Positions 10,324 to 55,200 are shown, counted from the stretch's first letter. The stretch is DNA of 64,000 nucleotides from Patescibacteria group bacterium (GCA_041650915.1 JBAZKE010000004.1:36179-100178), one strand, 5' to 3'. Notes: generated from the sequence alone by a model not told the origin. Program-made: numbers and translations.

Positions 10324-11133
10324 TTATGGCTTACTTTCTGGCCAACCTTTCAGCCGCAGCAGTTTACTCTCGATCGATGCGCCATCTACGTAGCGGTAAT
10401 ACTCGTCATCGTATCCATAACCACGGAGCGGTTTGCCGTTGTCTTTCCGATCGTCGGCGTCTCTGCGGCTGATCTCGTCGTGCCAGGACCAGAGAAACCC
10501 GTTAAGATAACGTGTTCTGGGCTGGCATACCAATGCGGTTTTGGCCAACCGAAAAAGGTCTTTTTCAGCCCATACGTGTCGATAGCCGCACAAAAGTTCT
10601 AGAACAGCGGCCTTCTCTTTGGGTGTTAGATTGACTTCATTGTTTTCTGTTACTAAGCCAAACAAAGGATTGAAAACAAGATGGCGATCCTCGTAGTGCA
10701 GGACAAAAGTACCCCAACACGGCACCAGCGACTTCAGTAGACACTCCACCTGATAAAAGACGGTGTGGTTCTCCTGCTCGCGAAATTGTAACCTGTATAC
10801 ACATTCCGCTACCGCGTCCACACTTTTGCTGCGTAAAATTTTGTATTCCGCGCCCTTTTTAGCTACTTCGGCTTTGGCCTCTGCCGCCTCGCGCAACTCC
10901 TGTGCACGGGCCTCCCGTCGTTTCTCGGCGTTGGTTTTCTTGACGGTGTACTCGATGCCGGCAGGCAGCAGCACCCGCAGGGCATTGTCTTGGGCATCGA
11001 ATACAAATCGGCCCGGTTCGTCCTGGGCCAACCGCTGCAGCACGGCCTTGGGGAACACACGGCCATAGTGATCGGGCTGGTCGGCCTTCCACAGCACGGC
11101 CGTCGTGACTCTGGCTTGCTCGTTGTGTGTCAT
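10324..11133 (-). CDS. hypothetical protein
   Basis: 269-aa ORF preceded by promoter TTGACA-N17-TAGAAT ending 6 nt before the ATG. Confidence 0.5.
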   Translation of the reverse strand: MTHNEQARVTTAVLWKADQPDHYGRVFPKAVLQRLAQDEPGRFVFDAQDNALRVLLPAGIEYTVKKTNAEKRREARAQELREAAEAKAEVAKKGAEYKILRSKSVDAVAECVYRLQFREQENHTVFYQVECLLKSLVPCWGTFVLHYEDRHLVFNPLFGLVTENNEVNLTPKEKAAVLELLCGYRHVWAEKDLFRLAKTALVCQPRTRYLNGFLWSWHDEISRRDADDRKDNGKPLRGYGYDDEYYRYVDGASIESKLLRLKGWPESKP

Positions 11134-11139
11134 GGCATC

Positions 11140-11168
11140 ATTCTACTCGGCAGAGCCGCGGTTGTCAA
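11140..11168 (-). promoter_or_regulatory. sigma70 promoter TTGACA-N17-TAGAAT, near-leaderless
   Basis: read on the minus strand; the -10 ends 6 nt before the ATG at 11133. Confidence 0.45.
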
Positions 11169-12154: not shown

Positions 12155-13671
12155 AGACCATAAACGTTACACGTGTCCACAACCTCCATGTGACGCGCAG
12201 GTCTCGCGTAATACTGGGCGTCGAACTCCGCCAAGGTCATGTGGTTGTTGGTACAAAACTTGATGATGGCTTCCTGTTTGGGACTCACAGGCAGCGGAAG
12301 TGACCGGTAGACATGTGCGAGGGCCCGCCAAAACCCCATGGCGGTCTCGTCCATTCGGTTCTTCCAGCCCGGCACCACTGTGACCTCACCCCAACGCTTG
12401 ACTCTCAGGACCGGCTGGATTTTGGCTTCGGGGTCGTCGGGTCCGCGGTGCGGCAGGTACAGCACCAGAAGGTCATCGGAGTCAGGACAAAACAGCAGTG
12501 TTGGCTGGGGGTCGGGGTTCGCTGCTGGTGCGACAAAAGTGACGCTAGGGTTAGACTGAGCCAAGCCAGTGACATCGGGGCAGGGTGTGGTCTGATCTGT
12601 GCCTGGTTGCGCCCCAGCGATTACTCGACAAATTATTTCTAGCGTTTTGGAACCATCGACTTTGTCTTCATTCGGCACCACGTCAGTCACGTACCCCATG
12701 ATACTGCCGGCACCGTTGTGGTCGTGTGTCACGATGCAAACGGCGTCGCCCGCGCCGAAGCGCCCACAGGCTTTAAGATAATTAAGACTGATGAAGCACT
12801 CCTTTGCGGTGTTATACATGATTGGGTACAGCAGCCAAGCCGTGACATCGGTCATGCCGATGACGACCTGGGCATCGGATACAGTTGAACACTGAGGATT
12901 TGATTGATTGTACGCCATTTTATTCTCCTGCTTTGGCTTTGCGCCGAGATCATGGCCTTTGTCGTGGCTGTACTGTACACCCGATACTGAGTTCTGCATG
13001 CACCGTAGGGTTTCGGCGTCATTCTCTGACGACCAGTCGGGCGGTTGCTGGACCATGGTGTGATACGCACCGGGCCTATGGTAGCGCTGCATTGCTTTAC
13101 TGGCCCCGGCCGTGATGGCGGTCATGATGCTTTCCGGAGTTTTATGTGCCCCGGCCTCGATAGCGACATTGAAGGTTTTCAGATTTTCCTCAGAGATTTT
13201 AGAAAAATTGGTAGGAACCATATTGGCCAAATTCTCGATCTCGTTGTGCTGGCGGCGAGCCTTCAGGAGGTCTAGGGCCTCGGTCTCATGCTCAGGTGAT
13301 GCGAACCAAGCAAGCTCCATGGGAAAAGGTGCAGTCCCTCCAGCCTGATATTCAGCATAGCGGTCTACCGCCCGCATGGCGCAGAACACATGGTCTATAT
13401 TGTCAAAACAAAACGATGTGCCTGGCCAGTGCTTTGCGTTCCAGTTTAAAATAGCGGTGGCAACGGCGTCTCGCGTAGCTATTGTCGTGCTCGTGTCCAC
13501 ACATTCCTCGTCGCCGCACCGAGGGCACCGGACTCTTGCGAAGCCTGTATCGTGACCTTTTTCTATGATGATGTCGATCTTGGGCCACACGATGTCGGCA
13601 ATGCTGTCAAGGGCACTGGGGCACCTTGGGCACGGCCCACAGAGAATACTGTATCGCGCGTAGTTCGGCAT
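12127..13671 (-). CDS. 514-aa protein with an N-terminal Lar-like Cys4 zinc-ribbon domain (possible restriction-alleviation fusion)
   Basis: N-terminus CGPCPRCP...VRCPRCGDEEC...AVATAILNWNAKH resembles the Lar family pattern (two CxxC, then AI..WN); the remaining roughly 430 aa are uncharacterised. Confidence 0.4.
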   Translation of the reverse strand: MPNYARYSILCGPCPRCPSALDSIADIVWPKIDIIIEKGHDTGFARVRCPRCGDEECVDTSTTIATRDAVATAILNWNAKHWPGTSFCFDNIDHVFCAMRAVDRYAEYQAGGTAPFPMELAWFASPEHETEALDLLKARRQHNEIENLANMVPTNFSKISEENLKTFNVAIEAGAHKTPESIMTAITAGASKAMQRYHRPGAYHTMVQQPPDWSSENDAETLRCMQNSVSGVQYSHDKGHDLGAKPKQENKMAYNQSNPQCSTVSDAQVVIGMTDVTAWLLYPIMYNTAKECFISLNYLKACGRFGAGDAVCIVTHDHNGAGSIMGYVTDVVPNEDKVDGSKTLEIICRVIAGAQPGTDQTTPCPDVTGLAQSNPSVTFVAPAANPDPQPTLLFCPDSDDLLVLYLPHRGPDDPEAKIQPVLRVKRWGEVTVVPGWKNRMDETAMGFWRALAHVYRSLPLPVSPKQEAIIKFCTNNHMTLAEFDAQYYARPARHMEVVDTCNVYGLWVIEKIYP

Positions 13672-13685
13672 GCTGGTCTCCTTAC

Positions 13686-14216
13686 CTATTTGCTCATACA
13701 GATTTCAAAGCATCGACGCTGCACCCTGGCGTCCCGCAGTGCATTGTGCTGGGGCAGTGATGAATCTGACAGTGCGGCAAATTCCTCGCGATTCAGGTCG
13801 GGATCCAGCCCTTTCAGTTTGAAGACGGTCGCGAGGTCAAATGGAATGTAGAACACGTTGCTGGGCAGATTCTGGGCACCACCAAACAACTCGCAAAATA
13901 ACACAAAATCATACGCCAAAACATCGCTCCAGATTTCCACAGAAGATTCAAACTGTCGTAGCCACTTTGACAATGTCATAGCTATGACTTCGGTGTTGTT
14001 CAGTACCTCAAACGTGTTGGGGCCCGCATGGTGCTTCGTCTGTAGGTACAGTCCGGACAACACATTCTCCTCAATCCAGTCGTCTACTTGGTCTAAATCA
14101 CAATCAGTGAATTCCGCGTAGAACTCCTCGCCAGTTTCGGCCACGAGCGCCAGACTAATGAGCGTGGTGCCCTGATGCAGGCCCGTGAATTCCGTGTCGA
14201 GAAAAAGTCGCGTCAT
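13686..14216 (-). CDS. DEDDh-type 3'-5' exonuclease (DnaQ/oligoribonuclease-like)
   Basis: ExoI FLDTEFTGL and ExoIII HNALRDA motifs. Confidence 0.55.
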   Translation of the reverse strand: MTRLFLDTEFTGLHQGTTLISLALVAETGEEFYAEFTDCDLDQVDDWIEENVLSGLYLQTKHHAGPNTFEVLNNTEVIAMTLSKWLRQFESSVEIWSDVLAYDFVLFCELFGGAQNLPSNVFYIPFDLATVFKLKGLDPDLNREEFAALSDSSLPQHNALRDARVQRRCFEICMSK

Positions 14217-27171: not shown

Positions 27172-27366
27172 GTTGATTCCTTATTCCGTTCCAGCGTTTT
27201 GCAGTATAACTCCATGTTGGCGCGGTCGCGTCGAGCTTCCTGCCGGCCATAACCGAGCCATACACCGTAGCCCATGGCCAGGCCCGCGAGATTTCAATCC
27301 ACACATCATTACAGCTATAAGCCACAAAGGCGATGCGTACCGATGTGGTTTTACTGTGCGGTCAGG

Positions 27367-37372: not shown

Positions 37373-37657
37373 TCACCAGTCCTTCATCTTGGTCTTGCGG
37401 GCCGGCACCACGACGTGACCGCATGGTCCAATTGTGACGGTGCTGGCCGAGACCAACACGTCGGTGCCGCGAGCAAAACCAACCACAAACCCTTTCGGCA
37501 ACACAGTTCCCGGCACGCCCGAAACCCTCACGACAGCGTTGGGTTTCTGGAACAGCCAACGGGCGAGCAGGAGTCTCCTAGGGCGATGCCGGCCACGATC
37601 AACAGGATGATCGTCATGACCACCCGCCCCTGTCACTAAAGGCTGCGTCCAGGTCAT
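37373..37657 (-). CDS. hypothetical protein
   Basis: 94-aa ORF. Confidence 0.3.
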   Translation of the reverse strand: MTWTQPLVTGAGGHDDHPVDRGRHRPRRLLLARWLFQKPNAVVRVSGVPGTVLPKGFVVGFARGTDVLVSASTVTIGPCGHVVVPARKTKMKDW

Positions 37658-38015
37658 CTATGGCGGTAAGGCAGGCATTGGTGTTGCCCACCAGCCTGCC
37701 GTTTACCTTTTCTACCACGCCTAAACCTACGCTGTCGAGACTCACGGCCCAATCGGGATGGGCGGGCGGCGCGAAATCGATAAGGCCGTTCGTAGCGATT
37801 CTACACTTAACCACTTCCTTTTTCCAAATGCCCGACCGATTTGGTATGTGAAGGTAGTAATGCCTCCAATAATATTGACCATCAACCAGCTCGGTCAGAC
37901 TCACCGTTACCTTGCGCTCGTCTTCAGTGCTATTAGGCAGATAGCACACAGCGTTACACGGAATCGGAATCATCATGGGCATCATTTCTCCCTGACCTCG
38001 CCGGCTTCGATCCAC
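37614..38015 (-). CDS. hypothetical protein
   Basis: 133-aa ORF. Confidence 0.4.
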   Translation of the reverse strand: MDRSRRGQGEMMPMMIPIPCNAVCYLPNSTEDERKVTVSLTELVDGQYYWRHYYLHIPNRSGIWKKEVVKCRIATNGLIDFAPPAHPDWAVSLDSVGLGVVEKVNGRLVGNTNACLTAIDDLDAAFSDRGGWS

Positions 38016-38036
38016 ACACCCTGCTGGCCCGATTCG
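38005..38036 (-). repeat. degenerate CRISPR repeat (canonical 32-nt I-C type); shares the 13-mer GATCCACACACCC with the mini-array unit at 48530
   Basis: GCTTCGATCCACACACCC versus GTTTTGATCCACACACCC. Confidence 0.45.
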
Positions 38037-38060
38037 TCATTCACGACGGTCCAGATCTGG

Positions 38061-38093
38061 TTTCAATCCACTCACCTTCGTGAAGGTGAGACG
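38061..38093 (-). repeat. solitary hairpin-retaining CRISPR repeat unit
   Basis: GTTTCAATCCACTCACCTTCGTGAAGGTGAGAC: first 12 nt identical to the array repeat; stem TCACCTTC/GAAGGTGA maintained by compensatory changes relative to GCGCCTTC/GAAGGCAC. Confidence 0.6.
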
Positions 38094-38247
38094 TCAACTA
38101 CCTTCGTGGTTTTACGCGCAGGAAGGCTTTATTCTGCGCAACGGCGTACCAACTGTGCTGTTGTCAACACCACGAACGCGGTTCGTTTGTGTTAGTGTTA
38201 CTGTAGCAGATGGTCGGGGAGGCGTCAACAGAAATCGTTCAGAAGGG

Positions 38248-40934: not shown

Positions 40935-41729
40935 GTGCATTCCTCCCCGGTTCCCCAGCCCACTGTCGGTCAGCATTGTTTTTACTACCGCGTCGTCGAC
41001 ACAGCAACGGGCAAACCCGCGACATACTTCACGCAAGAACGTCTGGCCATGCTGACGGGTCGGTTGCGCCACGGCGTGGGTCGGGCGTTTGTAGCCGCAG
41101 GCACCAATGACGACTGGGTGCAGAGTTACGTACACGGTCACGGCGTAGATTGGTGTGATCAGCGTCTATCCTACGTAGGATTTCCTGACGTGCAGCGTGG
41201 CGGTGGCGCTTTCGGTCTCCGCGTCGATTGCGCTGCTGTCGTATTGCCGGCCGGAGATGCCAGAGCACTACAGCATCTCCAAGCTGCTGGCCGCCTTGAT
41301 TGCGAAGCCTATGCAGCATCCAATGCTGTCTCGTTCATTCCGACCGAACAACCTGATTTTTGTCGCGTGTTTAACACACCAGCACGCACCTGGACCACAG
41401 TCACACCGGTCGCGCACTTCGGATCTCTCTTCACTGCGGATTGGAAATCTTCGGAATTTCTTACTGGATTGGCTTCCAGCGCGCTGGCACAGATTGATCA
41501 TGATGAGGCAGCGATTGCACGTGTACAGGTCAGGTCGACGCCGTTCTATTCCAGCGTGCTCGACGACATGCTTGGCATTCCGGCCAATCAGTATTTCATT
41601 CCCGTGCACATGCGGGGCAAGTTCTCATTTGCCCACGTGCGAATTGAATTCGACCGCGATGTCACGGGACCTGTACTCATGGGATTGGGACAATTCCGTG
41701 GATTTGGGCTGTTCGCGGGAGGTGTATAA
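40935..41729 (+). CDS. hypothetical protein with C-terminal glycine-rich loop (possible RAMP/Cas5-Cas6-like fold)
   Basis: C-terminus ...VLMGLGQFRGFGLFAGGV resembles the RAMP G-rich loop; no other motif recognised. Confidence 0.3.
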   Translation: MHSSPVPQPTVGQHCFYYRVVDTATGKPATYFTQERLAMLTGRLRHGVGRAFVAAGTNDDWVQSYVHGHGVDWCDQRLSYVGFPDVQRGGGAFGLRVDCAAVVLPAGDARALQHLQAAGRLDCEAYAASNAVSFIPTEQPDFCRVFNTPARTWTTVTPVAHFGSLFTADWKSSEFLTGLASSALAQIDHDEAAIARVQVRSTPFYSSVLDDMLGIPANQYFIPVHMRGKFSFAHVRIEFDRDVTGPVLMGLGQFRGFGLFAGGV

Positions 41730-46158: not shown

Positions 46159-48240
46159 GTTTCAATCCACGTGCCTTCACAAGGAAGGCACGACCGGTCA
46201 ACCTTAGACCCGCAACCCTGGTGACGGTCCAGTTTCAATCCACGTGCCTTCACAAGGAAGGCACGACCTGCCAATCCCGGAGGTTGCAAAACCGCCATGG
46301 CCATGTTTCAATCCACGTGCCTTCACAAGGAAGGCGCGACCCGGCTTGTCGTCTGGCAAATACCATGTCGTGATGCCATTTCAATCCACGTACCTTCTCG
46401 ACAGAAGGCACGACGAATCAGTGAGACCGATATCACTAATACCTCTGAATTATTTCAATCCACGTACCTTCTCGACAGAAGGCACGACGCGCAAGTCGGG
46501 AGCTTGTTTACCCGGCGTAGGACTTATTTCAATCCACGTACCTTCTCGACAGAAGGTACGACCGGGGTTATTTCGTGACCTTCCTCGCCAGCTGGGATGT
46601 ATTTCAACCCACGCGCCTTCTACCAAGAAGGCACGACCTGGATACAATTATCGAGCGCTGCGCGGATGTCCGTTGGTTTCAATCCACGCGCCTTCTACCA
46701 AGAAGGCACGACGACCCATGGGTCAATCGAGATCACTGAAGCGACCTGGTTTCAATCCACGCGCCTTCTACCAAGAAGGCACGACCGAAAGCCGAAGTTG
46801 CCTTGGCCAAGCAATTCGTGGTTTCAATCCACGCGCCTTCTACCAAGAAGGCACGACCCGCTGGATTTTTCTGGGCCCAACCGGTCCATCCTCGTTTCAA
46901 TCCACGCGCCTTCTACCAAGAAGGCACGACTCAAGCCTCGATACGCAAGGTGGTTCCTGCGGCGCCTCGTTTCAATCCACGCGCCTTCTACCAAGAAGGC
47001 ACGACCGATGCCCTGGGTTGATGGCCTCGATATGGTTAACCAGTTTCAATCCACGCGCCTTCTACCAAGAAGGCACGACCTGACACGGCACGGGCTGCAG
47101 CACGATGCTGACGCCGTTTCAATCCACGCGCCTTCTACCAAGAAGGCACGACATGGGAGTCCAAGTAAATGCAACCCGTCAACCCACCGTTTCAATCCAC
47201 GCGCCTTCACAAGGAAGGCACGACATCCTTACCGGTGCGGTGCGGATACCCTCGGTTGGCGTTTCAATCCACGCGCCTTCACAAGGAAGGCACGATCCTC
47301 GGACAGGCTGTCACGGGTCGAGAGTGAATCGTGGTTTCAATCCACGCGCCTTCACAAGGAAGGCACGACCAACTCGCCTTCGAGCAACGCGAGGCCCACG
47401 TCATTGTTTCAATCCACGCGCCTTCACAAGGAAGGCACGACCTCGACAATGAGTTGCACCCCGATGCGCAGCGCCTCACGTTTCAATCCACGCGCCTTCA
47501 CAAGGAAGGCACGACCCGACATAATGACGGGCCCCATCGGTCGCGATGCTGTTTCAATCCACGCGCCTTCACAAGGAAGGCACGACCAGCCTGGGTATAG
47601 GCGTAGGTAGAGATTCGTTCACCGTTTCAATCCACGCGCCTTCACAAGGAAGGCACGACGCGCATTTGTGAGCTTTTCCATGGCAGTCATCGCGTTTCAA
47701 TCCACGCGCCTTCACAAGGAAGGCACGACTCTGGCGAAACTCCCCATATCCGACCCGTCCATCACGGTTTCAATCCACGCGCCTTCACAAGGAAGGCACG
47801 ACCAATCTGTCGTGACCAAGGCTTCGTTGCTCTGCAGATGTTTCAATCCACGCGCCTTCACAAGGAAGGCACGACCTACCAGAACCGATTTACCTGCCCG
47901 CGTTGGACCCCTGTTTCAATCCACGCGCCTTCACAAGGAAGGCACGACAAACACGTTTGGTCCAGGTCCTGCAATACCCAGGTGTATGTTTCAATCCACG
48001 CGCCTTCACAAGGAAGGCACGACGACCTGGCCGAGGATATCCGGGAGCACGGTCAGGTTGTTTCAATCCACGCGCCTTCACAAGGAAGGCACGACAAGCT
48101 CGTTCTCCTGGACTCGCAGCGCACCTAGTTTGTTTCAATCCACGCGCCTTCACAAGGAAGGCACGACAGCGACCGATTAGAAACCCTTTACTCAGGAGAT
48201 AGATGTTTCAATCCACGCGCCTTCACAAGGAAGGCACGAC
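46159..48240 (-). CRISPR. CRISPR array: 29 repeats (36-37 nt), 28 spacers (35-38 nt), transcribed on the minus strand, leader at the high-coordinate end
   Basis: Plus-strand consensus is GTTTCAATCCACGCGCCTTCACAAGGAAGGCACGAC; on the minus strand it reads GTCGTGCCTTCCTTGTGAAGGCGCGTGGATTGAAAC, ending in the ATTGAAAC handle. Repeat subtypes occur in blocks: repeats 1-3 CGTGCC/ACAAG, 4-6 CGTACC/TCGACA (37 nt), 7-14 CGCGCC/TACCAA (37 nt), 15-29 CGCGCC/ACAAG. Degeneration increases toward 46159. Confidence 0.95.
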
Positions 48241-48291: not shown

Positions 48292-48450
48292 GCACTGCCA
48301 GATGAATTGGTGTTTTTGACTCTGGGCGCGCTTCTGAGCTTCATTACTGTCGGCCCAAGCCATTGATTTTGTTCTCCTGGTGTTCGCGCGAGCGGGTCCG
48401 GGGTTTTCGACGCCACCGAGCCGCTCGCGAGTTGTTTCAGTACAGCCGCA

Positions 48451-48625
48451 CTGTTTTGATCCACGCGCCTGTCGCGCTCCACGCGTTCGAGGCGCGGCGG
48501 AAGATGATATCATACCTGCATACCGCCTGGGGTTTTGATCCACACACCCGCAAGGGTGCGACGGCTACCAACGAGGCCATGAAACTGCTCGACATGTTTC
48601 AATCCGCGCACCCGTGAAAGGTGCG
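48451..48625 (-). CRISPR. decayed mini-array of canonical 32-nt type I-C repeats (3 units) between cas7 and the main-array leader
   Basis: Unit 3 GTTTCAATCCGCGCACCCGTGAAAGGTGCGAC reads on the minus strand as GTCGCACCTTTCACGGGTGCGCGGATTGAAAC, the classic I-C repeat form. Unit 2 is GTTTTGATCCACACACCCGCAAGGGTGCGAC. Unit 1 is disrupted. One 33-nt spacer-like segment lies between units 2 and 3. Confidence 0.6.
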
Positions 48626-48809
48626 ACTGCCCGGTCTCAACCAAGCAGCAATCATTGGCATTTTCGGCGCAGTTCCGCGAACCCAAGGAACAGAGCGCCG
48701 ACATCGTGTTGTATTCAGTTACCAATGTGCAGACCACCAAGCAATTCAGCAACTTACTGTTCCGCGAACCTCCAGGCTTTTACTGAGCGCTGGAGGTTCG
48801 CGCAACCCC

Positions 48810-49802
48810 CTACTTCGAGTTGATGAGTGCCCATCCGCCAGCCAGCCAGTCGCAGTGCTCGACGTTGGCCGGCAGACCCTCGGTGTTAACCGCCAGGGTG
48901 TAGTCCGTGATTTCCCGGACCGCCGTGACTTCCGGCTTCCGCGTCGCCGTAACTCGCTGCATCAGACTGGACCGCGACGCATTGCCCAGTGGGCTCATGT
49001 GCTTGAACGCGTGGAACGCGTGGAGGCAGCGCACGCCCGACGATGCCGTCATGGAGTCCCAGCAACCTACGAATGCTCGGACGAATAGATCTAGGTCGGC
49101 CTGGGTGAATCCCGTCTTGGCTGCCCATGCCGGCGCCACCGTGCCCTCGATGCGGTACAGCCCGAAAGGTACGATGAATTTTTTGCCCATCGTCCGGTTC
49201 GCTGCGGCGCTGTCCTCCGCAGTTTCGTTCTCCCCGCCTGCTTTGTCCTTGCGATTCGTCGCGCACATCCGCGTGATCGTCATGGGCAGGATCTCAATGG
49301 GGTCCACGGATAGCGCCGTGCAGATTTGCACCGGACCCGTAACTTTGCCCCCGCCCGACTTGCCCTTGGCCTTTTTGCCCTTGGCCTTGCCCTTCTTGCT
49401 TGTAGGCGTACCCGCCTCAGTCTCGGGCGCTTCAGGCTCGTCCTCTTTTGCATCGCCGCCGACCATCACGGCGCCAAACGTGCGTACGTCCCAGAACTTA
49501 CGCAGCAGTGCTTGCTGAAGGGTGTCATTCTCCGGCTTTACCGTTTTCTGAACCTCGGCGTTGACTTCTGCGAGCACAGCGCCATCGGTGTAATAGATAT
49601 TGTTTTCCTGCGTGCCTGTAGCTGCGGCGTAATCCTGCACATAATTGCGAATCTTGCGCTTTACGCAGACATCAGACATGATCCCCCTGCCTGTGGTGTA
49701 GTCAGTTCGGGGTTGGTTATCTGCATCGGGGTCACCGTTGGGATTTCCTCGGGCGACAGAAACAAACGCTACAAAATCATACCGGTTCGCGATCGTGGTC
49801 AT
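48810..49802 (-). CDS. cas7: Cas7 (Csd2, type I-C)
   Basis: N-terminal RYDFVAFVSVARGNPNGDPDADNQPRTDYTTGRGIMSDVCVKRKIRNYV matches the Csd2/DevR signature; AAGGAGA SD. Confidence 0.8.
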   Translation of the reverse strand: MTTIANRYDFVAFVSVARGNPNGDPDADNQPRTDYTTGRGIMSDVCVKRKIRNYVQDYAAATGTQENNIYYTDGAVLAEVNAEVQKTVKPENDTLQQALLRKFWDVRTFGAVMVGGDAKEDEPEAPETEAGTPTSKKGKAKGKKAKGKSGGGKVTGPVQICTALSVDPIEILPMTITRMCATNRKDKAGGENETAEDSAAANRTMGKKFIVPFGLYRIEGTVAPAWAAKTGFTQADLDLFVRAFVGCWDSMTASSGVRCLHAFHAFKHMSPLGNASRSSLMQRVTATRKPEVTAVREITDYTLAVNTEGLPANVEHCDWLAGGWALINSK

Positions 49803-49803
49803 T

Positions 49804-49983
49804 TCGTTCTCCTTTATTTCACTAGGCCAAGGGTTGCGCGCAGCGCGGTGGTTTCCAGGTGCTCCTGCTGCGCAATTTGCCGCACCGTTTGGGTGGCGTC
49901 TTGGGTCGTTAGCATCAGGACGGCCAGCGGCGATAGTTTGATTACTACTTGAGCGCTACAACGGTTGTTACTTTTGCTCCACA
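49804..49983 (-). CDS. small ORF (about 57 aa) in the 190-nt cas8c-cas7 gap
   Basis: ATG..TAA ORF below the track cutoff; function unknown. Confidence 0.2.
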
Positions 49984-49990
49984 TCGGTGT

Positions 49991-51835
49991 TTACTCCTCT
50001 GCGTCTGCCTCCTTTTTGGTTTGCATTCGCGACGCAATGTTAGCGTTGAATTGCTGGCGTTGGTGCTCGACGCCGAGAATGAAGTTTTCGCGTGCAGTTA
50101 GATCTGCATGCAGCGGCAGCGCATTATCCCGCGTAATTTCCGCGTTCACCTCCGTCAAAATCTCAAGATAGTGGTCAACCAAGTGCCCCGAGTTCTGGTG
50201 CGCTTCCCGCTGTACGTGACCATTGATTTCTGTTACTAGCTTCACCCATGCGTTGCGCTGTGCAGTGGCTGCCTGCTGGAAAGCGTTGGCCAGCCAGGCG
50301 CTGCGACGCAGTTCGGCCTGCACGACGTTCATCCCAGTTTTACCTCGGTACTGGCAGTACTTTACTTGTTCCAGTATAGCGAACGCTCTCCCCCACAGAT
50401 AGGATGGGTTTTTATTCTCTAGCTCCAGCATGCTCGATACCTCCTGTGCATCAGTTCGGTTTCTGCCGAGTTTGACCAATTTAGCCAATAGGCTGAAACG
50501 CGTGTTTCCTGCTCTCCGGTCGTTGCGCACGTAAATCATTGATGCAGCCAAAGTCGCTGCGTTACGCATACCCACGGGCAATGGAAGTCCTTGGAGCGCG
50601 CAATTCCAAAGGCTCTCTTTGTACCTAGCCATCTGGGCATCGATCTTGGTTCGGTCCACTTTACGTCGGTCGGCCATAGCACGCGTAAGCTCGTACACTG
50701 TGGGCAGCCAGGTCATTTTGCCGTCACCCATGGCGAGGTCATTTCGGTATTTTCGCACGTTACCGATGACTTCTGCGACAGTGCTCGTGTATTGTTTGAC
50801 CATGGCGCGCTTCATATTGGCCGATAGACTCACCAGGAAAAATGGCGAATAGTTTTTGGTGTCTAGATCCGTGTGCTGTGCTGCGTTGGTCAGGTCATGG
50901 CGAAGTTCTTTGCCCCGCACATGATCTAGCTGGCTGTAGTCCTCCGGAGTTGCCTCGGTTTCTTCTTCCGCATTTTCAAGCTCTAGCTGCTGAATAGTGG
51001 TTTGTACCCTGCGTAGGGTTTCCAAATCGCCATCGAGCCAATAGTACATCCGGCTCGTGTCTAGCGAAATGAAGAAACGATTCTCTGCTAGATACGCGAA
51101 CGTTGCTCGGTATTGCGCAATACCCTCAGGCGACATCGGCGCTGCGGCCCCGCGGGCTCCACCATAGCGGAGCAAGTGAGGTAAGTTATACGACACCAGG
51201 GATGCAGACGCCAGTTTGCCGTCAGCTCCTGGCATCACAACGGAGTCGTGTAACTCCTGCGGAGCATCCGTGAACTCCCCCGTGAGAACGCAGCGTACGG
51301 CTTGCTTACACTCAGGCCGGTTAGCCACGCGCCAGGCATCGAAGTAAGGCACAAGCTCCGCTTGCTCGTGCACATACTGTCCGTCGACGATAAATGCAAT
51401 CATGGGTGCGATTTTCCAAGCCAACGCACCCTCTTGCTCCAGCCGAGGGCGCTGTTGTTCCCAGCCGGCATAAAACTTGGCTACAGCTTGGGCACCGACG
51501 TTATTAGAGGCTTCGGCGAAGTAGTTTACCAAATCTACGAACAGACCGAAACACTCGGCAGCACGGTCTTTTTTATCTTCTTTTTCCCACAAACCCAACA
51601 CGTATGTAGCGTTGTCGCAGAAAGGGTTTGCTCGAGCGTTGCGTGTGCGCGGCCCGGGCAGTTTGGGCACTTGCGTGAAGGGGCGTTCGTCACCTTTTAG
51701 CGCGTAGGTTTCGGTGCGTAGTAGATTGCCTCCAGCGTCAAGGACCAAGGCATACCCCAGCGACATAGTTTCGTATCCGGGTCTATTTCCTAGTCCGCGC
51801 TGTACGGCGAATTTAGTGGCTGCGCGTAGGAACAT
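49991..51835 (-). CDS. cas8c: Cas8c (Csd1, type I-C large subunit)
   Basis: 614 aa; N-terminal ...GNRPGYETMSLGYALVLDAGGNLL... resembles Csd1; position between cas5 and cas7; start overlaps cas5 stop (TAATG). Confidence 0.65.
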   Translation of the reverse strand: MFLRAATKFAVQRGLGNRPGYETMSLGYALVLDAGGNLLRTETYALKGDERPFTQVPKLPGPRTRNARANPFCDNATYVLGLWEKEDKKDRAAECFGLFVDLVNYFAEASNNVGAQAVAKFYAGWEQQRPRLEQEGALAWKIAPMIAFIVDGQYVHEQAELVPYFDAWRVANRPECKQAVRCVLTGEFTDAPQELHDSVVMPGADGKLASASLVSYNLPHLLRYGGARGAAAPMSPEGIAQYRATFAYLAENRFFISLDTSRMYYWLDGDLETLRRVQTTIQQLELENAEEETEATPEDYSQLDHVRGKELRHDLTNAAQHTDLDTKNYSPFFLVSLSANMKRAMVKQYTSTVAEVIGNVRKYRNDLAMGDGKMTWLPTVYELTRAMADRRKVDRTKIDAQMARYKESLWNCALQGLPLPVGMRNAATLAASMIYVRNDRRAGNTRFSLLAKLVKLGRNRTDAQEVSSMLELENKNPSYLWGRAFAILEQVKYCQYRGKTGMNVVQAELRRSAWLANAFQQAATAQRNAWVKLVTEINGHVQREAHQNSGHLVDHYLEILTEVNAEITRDNALPLHADLTARENFILGVEHQRQQFNANIASRMQTKKEADAEE

Positions 51836-52506
51836 TATTGCACCGTTCCATAGTGGGTGGCGATAGCGGCTTCGCGCGGTGGAATGTTCAGGACTCCATT
51901 CTCCATGATGGCGTTGTAATACAGCGACACTTTTGGGGACACTTCGTAGTGAAAGTCGTAAAACATGTACCCGAGATCTACTGAAACTGGTAACGCCGTT
52001 TCGCTTTCGAAGTCTGCCGGGGCAACATCTGCGGGGAACTCGCGTCTCCCAAAATAGGGTGCGTGGTGGTATTGTCCGAGGTCTAGACGTCGTGTCAGCA
52101 TGGCCTCGTACTTGGTGAGATTGGCGTCTTCTGTCGGTTTAACAGTTAGGTGCATGACGAATTCTACTAGATAAGCGACGTCACGCAAAATTAGCTGGGC
52201 CATTTGTGTACGAGCTTGCGTAACATCAATTGTAGGTTTATCTTTCGTTGCGGCTTCTTTGATTCCATTGGTGCGAAATCGTACTAGCCTGATGGGTTTT
52301 AGTACTTTGAGCCTGAGCGGCTGGATCCGTACCTCTGGATGCCAAAATACACTCTCGAGCATACCACGAAGCGCGGAAGGCGTAGGCACCTCATAAGATA
52401 CACCTTCGATGCGGAACTCAGGTCGGACGAAGTTTGCGAAGTTGCCTGAAAATTTCACACAAAATGGTTTGCCGGTTTGGCCCACGAAAAAGGGTTTGCC
52501 TGTCAT
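51835..52506 (-). CDS. cas5: Cas5d (type I-C Cas5, pre-crRNA endonuclease)
   Basis: FANFVRPEFRIEGVSYEVPTPSALRGMLESVFWHPE matches the Cas5d N-terminal signature; 223 aa. Confidence 0.75.
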   Translation of the reverse strand: MTGKPFFVGQTGKPFCVKFSGNFANFVRPEFRIEGVSYEVPTPSALRGMLESVFWHPEVRIQPLRLKVLKPIRLVRFRTNGIKEAATKDKPTIDVTQARTQMAQLILRDVAYLVEFVMHLTVKPTEDANLTKYEAMLTRRLDLGQYHHAPYFGRREFPADVAPADFESETALPVSVDLGYMFYDFHYEVSPKVSLYYNAIMENGVLNIPPREAAIATHYGTVQ

Positions 52507-52636
52507 GCTGCGGTTCTCCTGCTGGTTCAGAACGGCGTTTTCTGCCGTGCATGTTCCCCACTGTAGCGGGATTCAGTGCTGCTGTCTAGGAAAATCGTCG
52601 CCGGGGCCTAAATTTTTTGAGGTGGGTGCAGGCGGG

Positions 52637-55006
52637 TTAGACGATAAGAGGCTGAAGTTGCAGGGATTGCTCGTTTAACTGGCGTACTTGTACACCATAC
52701 CGCGGGTCATACTGAAGCGCGGTAGGGTTCACCAGGAGCAGCGTCGCAGTGTCGACTTTCTTGACCTCGCCCTTGGTATCGTCACCCGCATCGTCTGCAA
52801 AGATCTCATCGTCCAGATTGAGCATGCGGATTAAACCGGCGTCCAGCCATTTGGCCAGACAAGTTTTTGCGATGTTTACGGTGTAGGTCCGCAGTGTACG
52901 ATAAGCTGCCCACGGGCGGTTCCCGCGCTCAATGTTTCTAACGGCTTCAGCACAGATTTCATCTTGAACTATGACGACTGGCGCCGACCAATCGCTCTCG
53001 ATCATCCTGAATTTTTCGCTCACAGTCTGAAAATTAAGTTTTCTACGCTCGGCTTGAATTTCGTCGCCCTGGGCAAGCTTTCGTGTTACGCGCCTATACC
53101 ATTTTTCCCAGTACTCTCGCTGCACCTGGGGATTAAATATATCGAAATCTTCTCCTCTGTTTCGTCGGTTCGTCCGCATTTCCCAAACTGTGGTGATGGC
53201 GGCTTCCAAGCCGTAGTCCATGATATTTTTCGTAGGCGACGCATATAATTTAAGCCTAGCCGCAGCCAAGCGTCCTTCACGGTTCACGCGCCCGGCGAAC
53301 TGAATGATGGAGTCCAGGCCGGCGATCGGTGCAAAACCAAGTGGAAAATCGAAATCGATTCCGGCTTCCACCAGACTCGTTGTTACAAGATGAATTAGTT
53401 TTTTATTTCTAAGTTTGTTCCGTACGTCTGCAATGACCCTAGACCGGTCCATAGGAGTCAGTAGAGCCGACAGTGCTATGATCTCTGCCCCTGTCCTTCG
53501 CGCGTCCAATTCTTCACACAGCGCCTGCACGTCGTCGCGCAACACTACTTTTGTAATGCTAGACACAGTTGAGGCTGTGATTTCGTTCACTAGTTCTGGC
53601 CAAGTGGTGGGCACAAATTCATCTGGCCACTCAACCGCCACACGCGGCGGTATCGTTATTTCGCCAGGTGCAACGATTTGATTTATTGACTTGAATCCGT
53701 ATGCGGTTTTAAGCACAACATTTCCGGGTCCGCGCATGCGGTTCATGACGGCGCGCACACGCTCCTGCCCTTCGAAATCCCATACTGGCACTGTAGCCGT
53801 AGAAATCAATAACGACACACCAAAGTGTTTCACCAGCGTATCCAAAATGTTAAGTACAGGAAATAGCACGTGTGCTGGAATCGTTTGCGCCTCGTCAATG
53901 AACACTACTGTGTTAGCGATGTTGTGGTTTTTACGGCTTTTGCGCACCTTACGCGCCAGTAAAGACTCGAAAAATTGAACCGTAGTCGACACGAGTATCG
54001 GGGCAGCCCAATTGTTAGTAATGAGCATGTCTCTGAATGTAAAGCGCCGGTCACTGCTGTTTTTCTCTGGATCGTACCCAGAATGATGCTCAATGACGTT
54101 ATTTGGTCCAACTGCCCCGCTAATTGCTGCAACCGTTTGCTCGATCAGTGCCTCGAACGGCTGCAAGATGATTATTTTGGATTTGTTGTATTTGATCGCA
54201 TGCAGAATAGCCCATTCAAGGCCCGAAAGTGTTTTGCCAAGCCCCGTTGGTACGTTCAGATAGTGAATTCCAGGAGGAAGCAAGGCAGCCACTCTGCATC
54301 TTTCTCGAACTAGAGCACGTTGTGTGTTTATAAAGGAAGGCTGTGCAGCGTTTTGCAACGCGTCGATCGTGTTTTCTAGTCTTTGACTGATAACAGGTAA
54401 AGAATCGAAGCCTGCTGCGCGCAGCCGCTCGCGTCCAGGCGTTTCTGCATTTTCGGCATCCAGAGCGTCTGCATCGCAAAGGGAAGAAAACAGCATGCGG
54501 AAGAATAGCTCGACAGTATAGATGTCTTTGCGCTGCTCTTGGCTTAATTGCTCCAGAGCGGGAAGTGTTTTAAGCTGCGCGTCCAGCCAAAGAAAACGAT
54601 CGGCTATTGGAATGTTTCTCAGCTCGTCGAGTTCTACCCTGCCCCAATCGATCGATCGGTTCCCTTCGGCATTCATATCCCGCATACCCGAATGGTGGTG
54701 CAGAACGGAGAACCAAACGGCAACGTGTTCTGGTCCTTGCTTGATGATCTGGGCCGCAATTTGTTTAAGATAATGGGCTGCGCTTTCCTTCGCGTGATAC
54801 GTGGTCATTGGGGCTTGCCCGAGTAGATATTGCTGCCAGGGGAGTACGCGCTTCTCGACGTCATGTACCAGGCCAGCCAGTAGGCCCAGATTGCCCAGCC
54901 CAAACGCCGTACAGTATTCTGAGCAGCGTCGGGCCACGCCCGCCAAGTGGTCGACTAAAAGTTGCTGGGCTCCAGCTTCCGAAACTCGGGCAAGCGGCTC
55001 AGTCAT
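52637..55006 (-). CDS. cas3: Cas3 (HD nuclease plus SF2 helicase)
   Basis: N-terminal HD-like LVHDVEK; DEAQ box (VVFIDEAQTIP); 789 aa; first gene of the operon. Confidence 0.75.
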   Translation of the reverse strand: MTEPLARVSEAGAQQLLVDHLAGVARRCSEYCTAFGLGNLGLLAGLVHDVEKRVLPWQQYLLGQAPMTTYHAKESAAHYLKQIAAQIIKQGPEHVAVWFSVLHHHSGMRDMNAEGNRSIDWGRVELDELRNIPIADRFLWLDAQLKTLPALEQLSQEQRKDIYTVELFFRMLFSSLCDADALDAENAETPGRERLRAAGFDSLPVISQRLENTIDALQNAAQPSFINTQRALVRERCRVAALLPPGIHYLNVPTGLGKTLSGLEWAILHAIKYNKSKIIILQPFEALIEQTVAAISGAVGPNNVIEHHSGYDPEKNSSDRRFTFRDMLITNNWAAPILVSTTVQFFESLLARKVRKSRKNHNIANTVVFIDEAQTIPAHVLFPVLNILDTLVKHFGVSLLISTATVPVWDFEGQERVRAVMNRMRGPGNVVLKTAYGFKSINQIVAPGEITIPPRVAVEWPDEFVPTTWPELVNEITASTVSSITKVVLRDDVQALCEELDARRTGAEIIALSALLTPMDRSRVIADVRNKLRNKKLIHLVTTSLVEAGIDFDFPLGFAPIAGLDSIIQFAGRVNREGRLAAARLKLYASPTKNIMDYGLEAAITTVWEMRTNRRNRGEDFDIFNPQVQREYWEKWYRRVTRKLAQGDEIQAERRKLNFQTVSEKFRMIESDWSAPVVIVQDEICAEAVRNIERGNRPWAAYRTLRTYTVNIAKTCLAKWLDAGLIRMLNLDDEIFADDAGDDTKGEVKKVDTATLLLVNPTALQYDPRYGVQVRQLNEQSLQLQPLIV

Positions 55007-55053: not shown

Positions 55054-55113
55054 TTGACAGCGAGGATTAGACCGCTATACTGGTGGATAGCAAGGAGGTG
55101 TTGCATGCTTTGA
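55054..55113 (+). promoter_or_regulatory. divergent promoter TTGACA-N16-TATACT, then consensus SD AAGGAGGTG and two-codon mini-ORF ATG CTT TGA
   Basis: near-consensus elements read directly: SD at 55092..55100, ATG at 55105, stop at 55111. Confidence 0.45.
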
Positions 55114-55137: not shown

Positions 55138-55176
55138 CGTCGTCGCCATGGCTCTGGCTTTAATGACGTGTGGGTT
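55138..55176 (+). repeat. possible degenerate CRISPR-repeat-like element in crRNA orientation
   Basis: CGTCGTCGCC...GACGTGTGGGTTGAAAC versus GTCGTGCC...GCGCGTGGATTGAAAC; about one 10/11 match to the handle is expected by chance in this window, so this is weak. Confidence 0.2.
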
Positions 55177-55200
55177 GAAACTACTCCGCACAACTGACAT

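Follow-up and report, generated by a model that had tools for sequence, protein, structure and literature searches.

The DNA analysed here is a stretch of 64,000 nucleotides (the window) deposited as part of a Patescibacteria group bacterium assembly (GCA_041650915.1, JBAZKE010000004.1:36179-100178), and its subject is a solitary CRISPR repeat unit located in the 265-nt intergenic gap between an HSP20-family gene and the gene of a 122-aa ORFan. The unit, referred to as the orphan unit, consists of a repeat (psiR1), a 24-nt spacer-like segment (psiS) and a degenerate second repeat (psiR2). It lies 8,067 nt past the trailer end of a main CRISPR array and 10.7 kb from cas7, in the same orientation (minus) as the array, the cas genes and both flanking genes. 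An intergenic location about 8 kb from the array and an orientation shared with the array and the flanking minus-strand genes had been described in the first-pass annotation of the sequence, and both descriptions are borne out by these measurements. The replicon is phage-like, with PHROG matches to connector, RNase H and endolysin, a TnpB gene and many ORFans. The effector genes cas5, cas7, cas8c and cas3 of a type I-C system are present on it, on the same strand as the orphan unit (Table 1). The interpretation favoured below, tentatively, is that the orphan unit is a gene for a CRISPR RNA (crRNA)-like RNA (crlRNA) serving the phage's own type I-C system, its target lying outside the sequence searched.

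The sequence of psiR1 on the plus strand (38060-38092) is GTTTCAATCCACTCACCTTCGTGAAGGTGAGAC, corresponding to GTCTCACCTTCACGAAGGTGAGTGGATTGAAAC on the minus strand. A GTC start is followed by a 9-bp stem, a 3-nt loop and the 11-nt handle TGGATTGAAAC (38060-38070); the stem is a perfect helix (CTCACCTTC/GAAGGTGAG) and the hairpin is found in the minimum-free-energy fold. The first-pass annotation had recognised that the first 12 nt are identical to those of the array repeat, and the match is indeed exact; the sequence is likewise present as it described, with its true position 1 nt lower than the 38061-38093 it gave. Within the window, the 12-mer GTTTCAATCCAC occurs 32 times with at most one mismatch, compared with 0.47 occurrences expected, and psiR1 is the sole exact copy found outside the array. 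A covariance model built from nine distinct array and mini-array repeat variants, with psiR1 excluded, assigned it 40.7 bits (E 4e-11 window-wide), which falls between two units of a mini-array close to the cas genes (42.4 and 38.2 bits). The length, within the ~32-37 nt of type I-C repeats, the GTC start and the handle (U)GGAUUGAAAC directly after the stem-loop are all as expected for this subtype. These features identify psiR1 as a true repeat unit of type I-C, oriented in the crRNA sense.

The degenerate second repeat, psiR2, has the exact 13-mer GATCCACACACCC in common with unit 2 of the mini-array; the chance that a 13-mer common to any repeat variant would occur within 60 nt was estimated at ~1.6e-4. 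Unit 2 is also its closest relative overall (75% identity, and only 61% to psiR1). The covariance score of psiR2, 11.8 bits, is not significant window-wide (E 0.42) and is significant within the 400 nt around psiR1 (E 0.0026). A handle-like end is kept, whereas no stable hairpin is formed, the fold being no better than those of shuffled sequences. In the first-pass annotation this second unit had been placed at 38005-38036, 24 nt from the first; the unit and the shared 13-mer are real, its position is 38004-38035, and the 24-nt gap is not the sole parse, the covariance model also allowing a 44-nt unit that begins at GTCGTG (38047) and leaves a gap of only 12 nt. The 24-nt spacer boundary appears to be the more natural parse. 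It makes psiS shorter than the spacers of the main array (34–39 nt). With one intact and one degenerate unit, the arrangement is not a canonical array of at least three near-identical repeats with uniform, subtype-typical spacers; a 33-nt psiR1, a 24-nt psiS (within a range of ~19–27 nt) and a degenerate 32-nt psiR2 form instead the layout of crlRNAs and of CreR/CreA. A perfect 10-nt palindrome, CCAGATCTGG, at 38051-38060 contains a BglII site and spans the junction of handle and psiS. Because of this palindrome the first nine guide bases are self-complementary, and it could serve as an operator.

Relative to the main-array repeat, two stem pairs of psiR1 are changed on both sides and one G.U pair has become C-G, so that the earlier description of a stem kept perfect by paired changes is accurate. 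The possibility that such changes would prove coincidental in a larger alignment was raised in the same annotation. Across 11 repeat variants, however, the helix is 97% paired, and four pairs change on both sides, above shuffled and slid controls, which indicates that the helix is a real structure of the repeat family. The conclusion that the paired substitutions mean selection at this site is not supported. The identity of psiR1 is 85% to mini-array unit 1, 88% to a solitary I-C repeat of the Streptococcus satellite phage Javan145, 85% to a Bacillus mycoides plasmid I-C repeat and 82–88% to solitary I-C repeats in other viral contigs, compared with 69–73% to the main-array variants. It belongs, on these comparisons, to the 31–33-nt repeat lineage and is not a main-array repeat that has mutated. 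As a member of another lineage, its paired changes would reflect a family constraint inherited from functional arrays, and the single further copy of the locus shows 100% identity. Covariation in the sequences compared cannot discriminate between upkeep of the psiR1 copy and its recent origin.

The type I-C locus to which the orphan unit would be cognate carries, after cas7 in the minus direction, the mini-array, a leader and the main array. No adaptation genes (cas1, cas2 or cas4) are adjacent to the effector genes at 48810-55006. Repeat variants with covarying stems are arranged in four blocks, which gives the main array a mosaic structure. Logan contigs of SRR8542065 carry the sequence of the window unchanged. 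Outside the array region, the same is true of the ENA contig k141_1703148 (101,657 bp), whose array lacks one internal spacer-repeat unit (spacer 24) and is unchanged at the leader end; an internal loss with no difference at the leader end points to recombination and not to acquisition. An NCBI metagenome-assembled genome contig of 107,933 bp encodes the same proteins under the label 'Patescibacteria group bacterium'.

Within the phage, the orphan unit has its nearest counterpart in the mini-array, whose third unit is followed by a 24-nt segment (psiS3) and then by a possible degenerate repeat (psiR4). Positions 1–5 and 7–11 of psiS3 match a site at 52572-52585 (plus) that is flanked by a TTC protospacer-adjacent motif (PAM). 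The site covers the -35 element of a promoter-like sequence, TAGACA-17-TACAGT (52560-52588, minus), between cas3 and cas5, and psiS3 accordingly marks a candidate CreR-like RNA that would regulate cas genes, here encoded in the I-C locus of a phage. Besides the mini-array units, the scan for further repeats with a hairpin, which the first-pass annotation had proposed, scored two long-loop units in the window with the covariance model, at 55142-55181 and ~27291-27340. The former lies behind a strong promoter (55054-55081, plus) that stands back-to-back with the cas3 promoter. Its handle is followed by TACTCCGCACA, 12 nt of which match, at 9/10, a TTC-flanked site over the -10 and spacer region of a strong promoter at 11140-11168 (TTGACA-17-TAGAAT). 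This promoter is located upstream of the open reading frame (ORF) 10324-11133, whose ATG follows 6 nt after the -10 element, so its mRNA may be leaderless. When seeds were shuffled, TTC-flanked matches of 9/10 or better fell on promoter-like sites at a rate of 0.0057 per seed; two of the six actual seeds gave such a match (binomial probability ~5e-4). Set against this null, the two matches make it very likely that the phage uses crRNA-like regulators, one of them with the 24-nt layout of the orphan unit.

The second long-loop unit (minus strand) ends in GTGTGGATTGAAAT and shows ~100 nt of homology to the 55142 unit, with a compensatory change in the stem (ACGCAUC/GAUGUGU versus ACGCGUC/GACGUGU). 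The gap that contains it measures 196 nt and precedes a 63-aa ORF; a seed scan found no target for the unit.

Table 1. Positions of the orphan unit, its neighbours and the other CRISPR-related features in the window.
Feature	Position	Strand	Basis or score
psiR1, intact 33-nt type I-C repeat unit	38060-38092	minus	sequence, covariance model, minimum-free-energy hairpin
psiS, 24-nt spacer-like segment, CAGATCTGGACCGTCGTGAATGAC	38036-38059	minus	sequence
psiR2, degenerate second repeat, GAATCGGGCCAGCAGGGTGTGTGGATCGAAGC	38004-38035	minus	13-mer, model score, identity
Sigma70-like promoter, TTGACG-17-TACAGT with TG	38200-38228	minus	consensus scan, prediction only
122-aa ORFan, downstream	37614-37982	minus	translation, gene call (L003)
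HSP20-family gene, upstream, 137 aa	38248-38661	minus	Pfam HSP20 1.5e-20
Main CRISPR array, 29 repeats of 36–37 nt, leader at high-coordinate end	46159-48240	minus	
Cas-proximal mini-array (31–33-nt-type units), unit 1	48596-48627	minus	42.4 bits
Mini-array, unit 2	48532-48562	minus	38.2 bits
Mini-array, unit 3	48453-48498	minus	26.6 bits
psiS3, 24-nt segment after mini-array unit 3, AGTGCGGCTGTACTGAAACAACTC	48429-48452	minus	
Possible degenerate psiR4 after psiS3	48403-48428	minus	
cas7	48810-49802	minus	Pfam Cas_Cas7 1.5e-69
cas8c	49991-51835	minus	Pfam Cas_Csd1 8e-62
cas5	51835-52506	minus	Pfam Cas_Cas5d 5e-23
Predicted psiS3 target; TTC PAM 52572-52574 (plus), protospacer from 52575 (plus)	52560-52598		
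cas3	52637-55006	minus	Pfam Cas3-like_C_2/DEAD
Degenerate long-loop repeat-like unit	55142-55181	plus	17.3 bits

The gap that holds the orphan unit is the longest same-strand gap within the 22-kb locus around it (L003). The predicted promoter lies ~100 nt upstream of psiR1 and shares its -10 hexamer and spacing with the promoter-like site in front of cas5. No minus-strand terminator was called between this promoter and the orphan unit or the ORFan, and the hairpin of psiR1 was rejected as an intrinsic terminator, as it is not followed by a T-run. The ribosome-binding site of the ORFan, GGGAG, begins ~10 nt after psiR2, which places the repeat unit within the 5' leader of the ORFan gene. No family of Rfam reached its gathering threshold in the window, the gap giving only a sub-threshold match to CRISPR-DR9 through the handle, and no homology to the main-array leader was detected in the region of the orphan unit. 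The 122-aa ORFan itself has no Pfam, PADLOC or PDB match and no similarity to anti-CRISPR (Acr) proteins; its single homologue is a 99% identical copy, its structure model (predicted local distance difference test score, pLDDT, 37) is unusable and its isoelectric point of 5.5 is uninformative. Between the orphan unit and the array, at 40935-41729 (plus), a solo gene encodes a 264-aa protein resembling the type I-G Cas5g/Cas5-6g (Csb2). It matches only the C-terminal half of Csb2 (PADLOC 2.5e-16, Pfam Cas_GSU0054 6e-7), and no further I-G genes are found around it. A TnpB-like gene with a Cas12f1-like TNB domain is located inside the phage at 30472-31596 (minus).

Searches for relatives elsewhere recovered the repeat class and not the locus. 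Neither the 122-aa protein nor a neighbouring 659-aa protein has homologues beyond 99–100% identical copies, related loci were absent from viral contigs and from a BLAST search of phages, and a second assembly of the phage is 100% identical across 24611-46415. No array with the exact stem and handle of psiR1 was present in GTDB genomes, IMG/VR or JGI metagenomes (zero hits in the metagenomes); 20-mer matches in Lysinibacillus and in one IMG/VR contig were coding-sequence coincidences and not arrays. A looser repeat pattern, TCTCACC-N4-10-GGTGAGTGGATTGAAA, identified five IMG/VR contigs with one unit each. Three of these, the related phage contigs L010-L012, display the order terminator, strong promoter, solitary repeat at the predicted start site, ~20 nt and terminator. 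In L010 the unit (12211-12241) is accompanied, 900 nt away, by a separate I-C array of a different repeat type (13118-13795). A solitary unit together with a separate I-C array is a combination also present in the window, and the hairpin loop and closing pairs vary among L010-L012 (CCCAAGTGGG, CCCGAGCGGG, CCCACTCGGG). Of the other two, L013 carries its unit within the 5' leader of a RecA-like gene, and L009 is the sequence of satellite phage Javan145, with the unit ~230 nt from the integrase gene. Judged from these contigs, solitary units of the I-C repeat class of psiR1 are a recurrent feature of viral genomes. The long-loop units and the main-array repeat had no relatives in IMG/VR.

Several kinds of small CRISPR-derived RNAs have been described with which the orphan unit can be compared. 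Type I-C crlRNAs arise from solitary repeat units and repress the promoters of Nezha, Gabija and 'CRISIS' systems; the two-psiR form is a 57-nt RNA (11 + 25 + 21 nt), Cas5c cutting directly 3' of the hairpin so that the 11-nt handle is kept, and the PAM at the target promoters is TTC or TTA (10.1101/2024.12.27.630466). With these the orphan unit has in common a hairpin-bearing psiR1 with the conserved 11-nt handle, a second repeat-like unit, cognate cas5, cas8c and cas7 genes, and a spacer of similar length (24 nt compared with ~25 nt). The described crlRNAs, however, are located between cas3 and cas5c of bacterial loci and possess a 16-bp TTC/TTA-flanked match to the adjacent promoter, whereas the orphan unit is borne by a phage, where it occupies the leader of an ORFan gene at a distance of 10.7 kb from cas7, with no target found and with the psiR2 hairpin lost. 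CreR and CreA are degenerate mini-CRISPRs that partially match promoters of cas or toxin genes, usually nearby (10.1101/2023.03.10.532045). Their pseudo-spacers measure 23–27 nt, and those of published crRNA-like RNAs 19–27 nt (10.1101/2024.10.29.618823). Like them, the orphan unit has a processing repeat that is intact, followed by a short pseudo-spacer and a repeat that has decayed. The promoter complementarity that defines CreR and CreA was looked for in the sequence searched and not found, and no candidate for a toxin emerged; the CreR description fits rather the psiS3 unit of the same phage, with its seed match to the cas5 promoter.

The remaining two kinds come from mobile elements. RNA anti-CRISPRs (Racrs) are solitary-repeat decoys, often encoded beside acr genes, and RacrIC1 has been validated for type I-C (Nature 2023, PMC10651486). 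Like them, the orphan unit is a lone repeat placed between genes of a phage, downstream of a promoter (here predicted) and ahead of a small ORF that would be co-transcribed; at 61% identity, psiR2 is below the 70% flank filter of SRUFinder. Single units of the same I-C repeat class are those in the five IMG/VR contigs. Racr elements have been described without cas association, as mimics of the host repeat, while the phage of the orphan unit possesses an I-C effector and an array of its own, and psiR1 is followed at 24 nt by a degenerate repeat. Viral Cracrs and Cracr arrays are phage crlRNAs with short pseudo-spacers, sometimes stacked and with I-C examples (10.1101/2024.10.29.618823). They resemble the orphan unit in being phage-borne with short pseudo-spacers and differ in that they were found through pseudo-spacer similarity to host CreR/CreA and hijack the host Cas proteins, the Cas proteins being supplied here by the phage. 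In structure, the orphan unit thus has the properties of a crlRNA, and in target and location, within the sequence searched, it does not. It probably belongs to an already known kind of element, the crRNA-like RNA genes.

The specific proposal, a crlRNA gene for the phage's own I-C system, starts from the identity of the repeat, its layout and orientation, the cognate cas genes and the unit of the same layout with a predicted promoter target; transcription, processing, loading and the existence of a target are the steps it would add. Transcription on the minus strand would proceed from the promoter at 38228-38200 or by read-through from the HSP20 gene, and the transcript would be the 5' leader of the mRNA for the 122-aa ORFan. 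Cas5 would cut at the 3' base of the psiR1 hairpin, between 38071 and 38070, leaving the 11-nt handle UGGAUUGAAAC on the short guide CAGAUCUGGACCGUCGUGAAUGAC, the 3' end of which would not be set by a second Cas5 cut because the hairpin of psiR2 is lost. The crlRNA would then be loaded into the I-C Cascade. Since the guide is short (24 nt compared with 34–39 nt), it would direct binding without cleavage by Cas3, and the Cascade-crlRNA complex would regulate transcription from a promoter outside the sequence searched, either in the other ~27 kb of the phage or in its host.

Target searches in cis covered 74.8 kb of the 101.7-kb contig, namely the window, 9.25 kb upstream (L014, L006) and 1.5 kb downstream, a target being defined as a TTC/TTA-flanked seed match of at least 9/10 with positions 6 and 12 ignored. 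For psiS, one TTC-flanked 8/10 match was obtained (7936), equal to the chance expectation of ~0.8. An 11-mer match in a ribonucleotide-reductase gene is preceded by ACC in place of a PAM and is not at a promoter, and the 9-nt self-seed created by CCAGATCTGG on the opposite strand was rejected as a target for its GTC 'PAM'. With every sixth base left free, no protospacer for psiS was found in viral contigs, and metagenomes gave a single match, with a GTG 'PAM', in an unrelated GC-rich contig showing no similarity past the 24 nt; as ~1–2 such matches are expected, it was judged to be due to chance. The first-pass annotation had put forward a search of the genome, the host and other phages for matches to the 24-nt segment; in the 74.8 kb of the phage and in the viral and metagenome collections, no target of the kind defined above was found.

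Several points weigh against the orphan unit being an active crlRNA gene. Within the 74.8 kb, psiS has no TTC/TTA-flanked seed match of at least 9/10, and so no promoter match of the nine or more PAM-proximal bases expected of a crlRNA. The unit lies outside the cas operon and its intergenic regions, where crlRNAs and CreR/CreA are usually sited. The searches described above yielded no diverged relatives of the locus in which conservation could be seen. The promoter is a prediction that matches the consensus at just 9 of 12 positions, and the 221-nt leader as a whole folds no better than shuffled sequences (z -0.78). The crlRNA gene is put forward as the leading explanation with somewhat less than even confidence.

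The rather unlikely but most serious alternative is that the orphan unit is a non-functional relic of an array of the 31–33-nt type, either derived from the mini-array lineage or left as the old trailer end of the array, cut off by an insertion of 8 kb, and persisting only because it is recent. The order of its units mirrors that of the mini-array, psiR1 being 85% identical to unit 1 and psiR2 75% to unit 2; it shares the orientation of the main array and lies on its trailer side; and the mosaic of four repeat variants together with the internal loss in the ENA contig points to ongoing recombination of the array. The empty target searches, and the failure to find diverged relatives that could show conservation, would also fit a relic. 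Decay, however, is asymmetric: psiR1 is intact in its GTC 5' end, 9-bp stem and 11-nt handle, while psiR2 has no hairpin and psiS is shortened. Neutral decay should erode both units alike, and the asymmetry argues against plain decay. Also against a relic are the 24-nt spacing, equal to that of the target-bearing psiS3, the predicted promoter in place, and the position in the longest gap of the locus of a phage whose genes are otherwise tightly packed. It is distinctly unlikely, by comparison, that the unit is a Racr-type decoy, a solitary repeat that would mimic a host I-C repeat with the stem GTCTCACC...GGTGAG and trap Cas5 and Cas7 in aberrant complexes to protect the phage, psiS having no target and the downstream ORFan being possibly a co-transcribed anti-defence gene. 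A stem lineage different from that of the phage's 36–37-nt array (69–73% identity), the 82–88% identity to viral solitary I-C repeats, the promoter-repeat-~20 nt-terminator layout of L010-L012, with an I-C array also in L010, and the lack of a target for psiS all agree with a decoy, as does the description of Racrs as promoter-driven intergenic solitary repeats of mobile elements, often with acr genes and, in RacrIC1, validated (PMC10651486). Yet the 11-nt handle is the same in the phage's own I-C system, whose Cascade a decoy would harm as well; no array with the psiR1 repeat, and hence no mimicked host repeat, is known from the genome, viral and metagenome collections; Racrs are not characterised by a further, degenerate repeat at a distance of 24 nt; the promoter lies ~100 nt upstream instead of immediately adjacent; and the ORFan has no similarity to Acr proteins.

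Two further explanations are very improbable. A recombination or attachment site, used for integration into a CRISPR array or for capture of array segments by a phage lacking adaptation genes, would recall the solitary repeat of Javan145, the closest annotated relative (88%), at ~230 nt from an integrase gene, and a serine resolvase gene is indeed located just past the end of the window (L017, 142-720). No integrase or recombinase gene is present within 20 kb of the orphan unit, however, and the 24-nt spacing, the degenerate second unit and the promoter would be left unexplained; to our knowledge, temperate elements are the only ones for which integration of a prophage into CRISPR repeats has been described, which also counts against such a site. 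Equally hard to credit is an ordinary mini-array that is competent for interference and whose one spacer is directed at a fixed invader. The order repeat-spacer-repeat and the cognate cas3 would suit it, but the spacer has 24 nt instead of the 34–39 nt of the array, psiR2 lacks the hairpin required for a normal 3' handle, and the search with psiS was empty in viral contigs and at chance level, with its GTG 'PAM', in metagenomes.

Both regulators (CreR/CreA, crlRNAs) and RNA anti-CRISPRs are known among solitary repeats and degenerate mini-CRISPRs, and nearly all cases studied make use of bacterial Cas proteins. The phage described here supplies its own I-C effector together with several repeat-like units, two of them with PAM-flanked seed matches at phage promoters. 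Should the orphan unit be a relic, it documents the recombination that builds and breaks phage arrays in the absence of adaptation genes. Should it be active as a crlRNA gene, it would represent a compact natural case of the control of virus genes by Cascade and would offer designs for I-C crlRNAs with short (24-nt) guides. A broader and, at this stage, unlikely extension is that a phage Cascade without adaptation genes works as a programmable transcription factor with dispersed crRNA-like units as its guides: psiS3 would repress the cas5 promoter, the 55142 unit would repress the phage promoter at 11140-11168, 44 kb away, and the orphan unit would supply a third guide, aimed at a promoter in the rest of the phage or in the host. 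If true, a virus would then contain a gene-regulatory network built on CRISPR.

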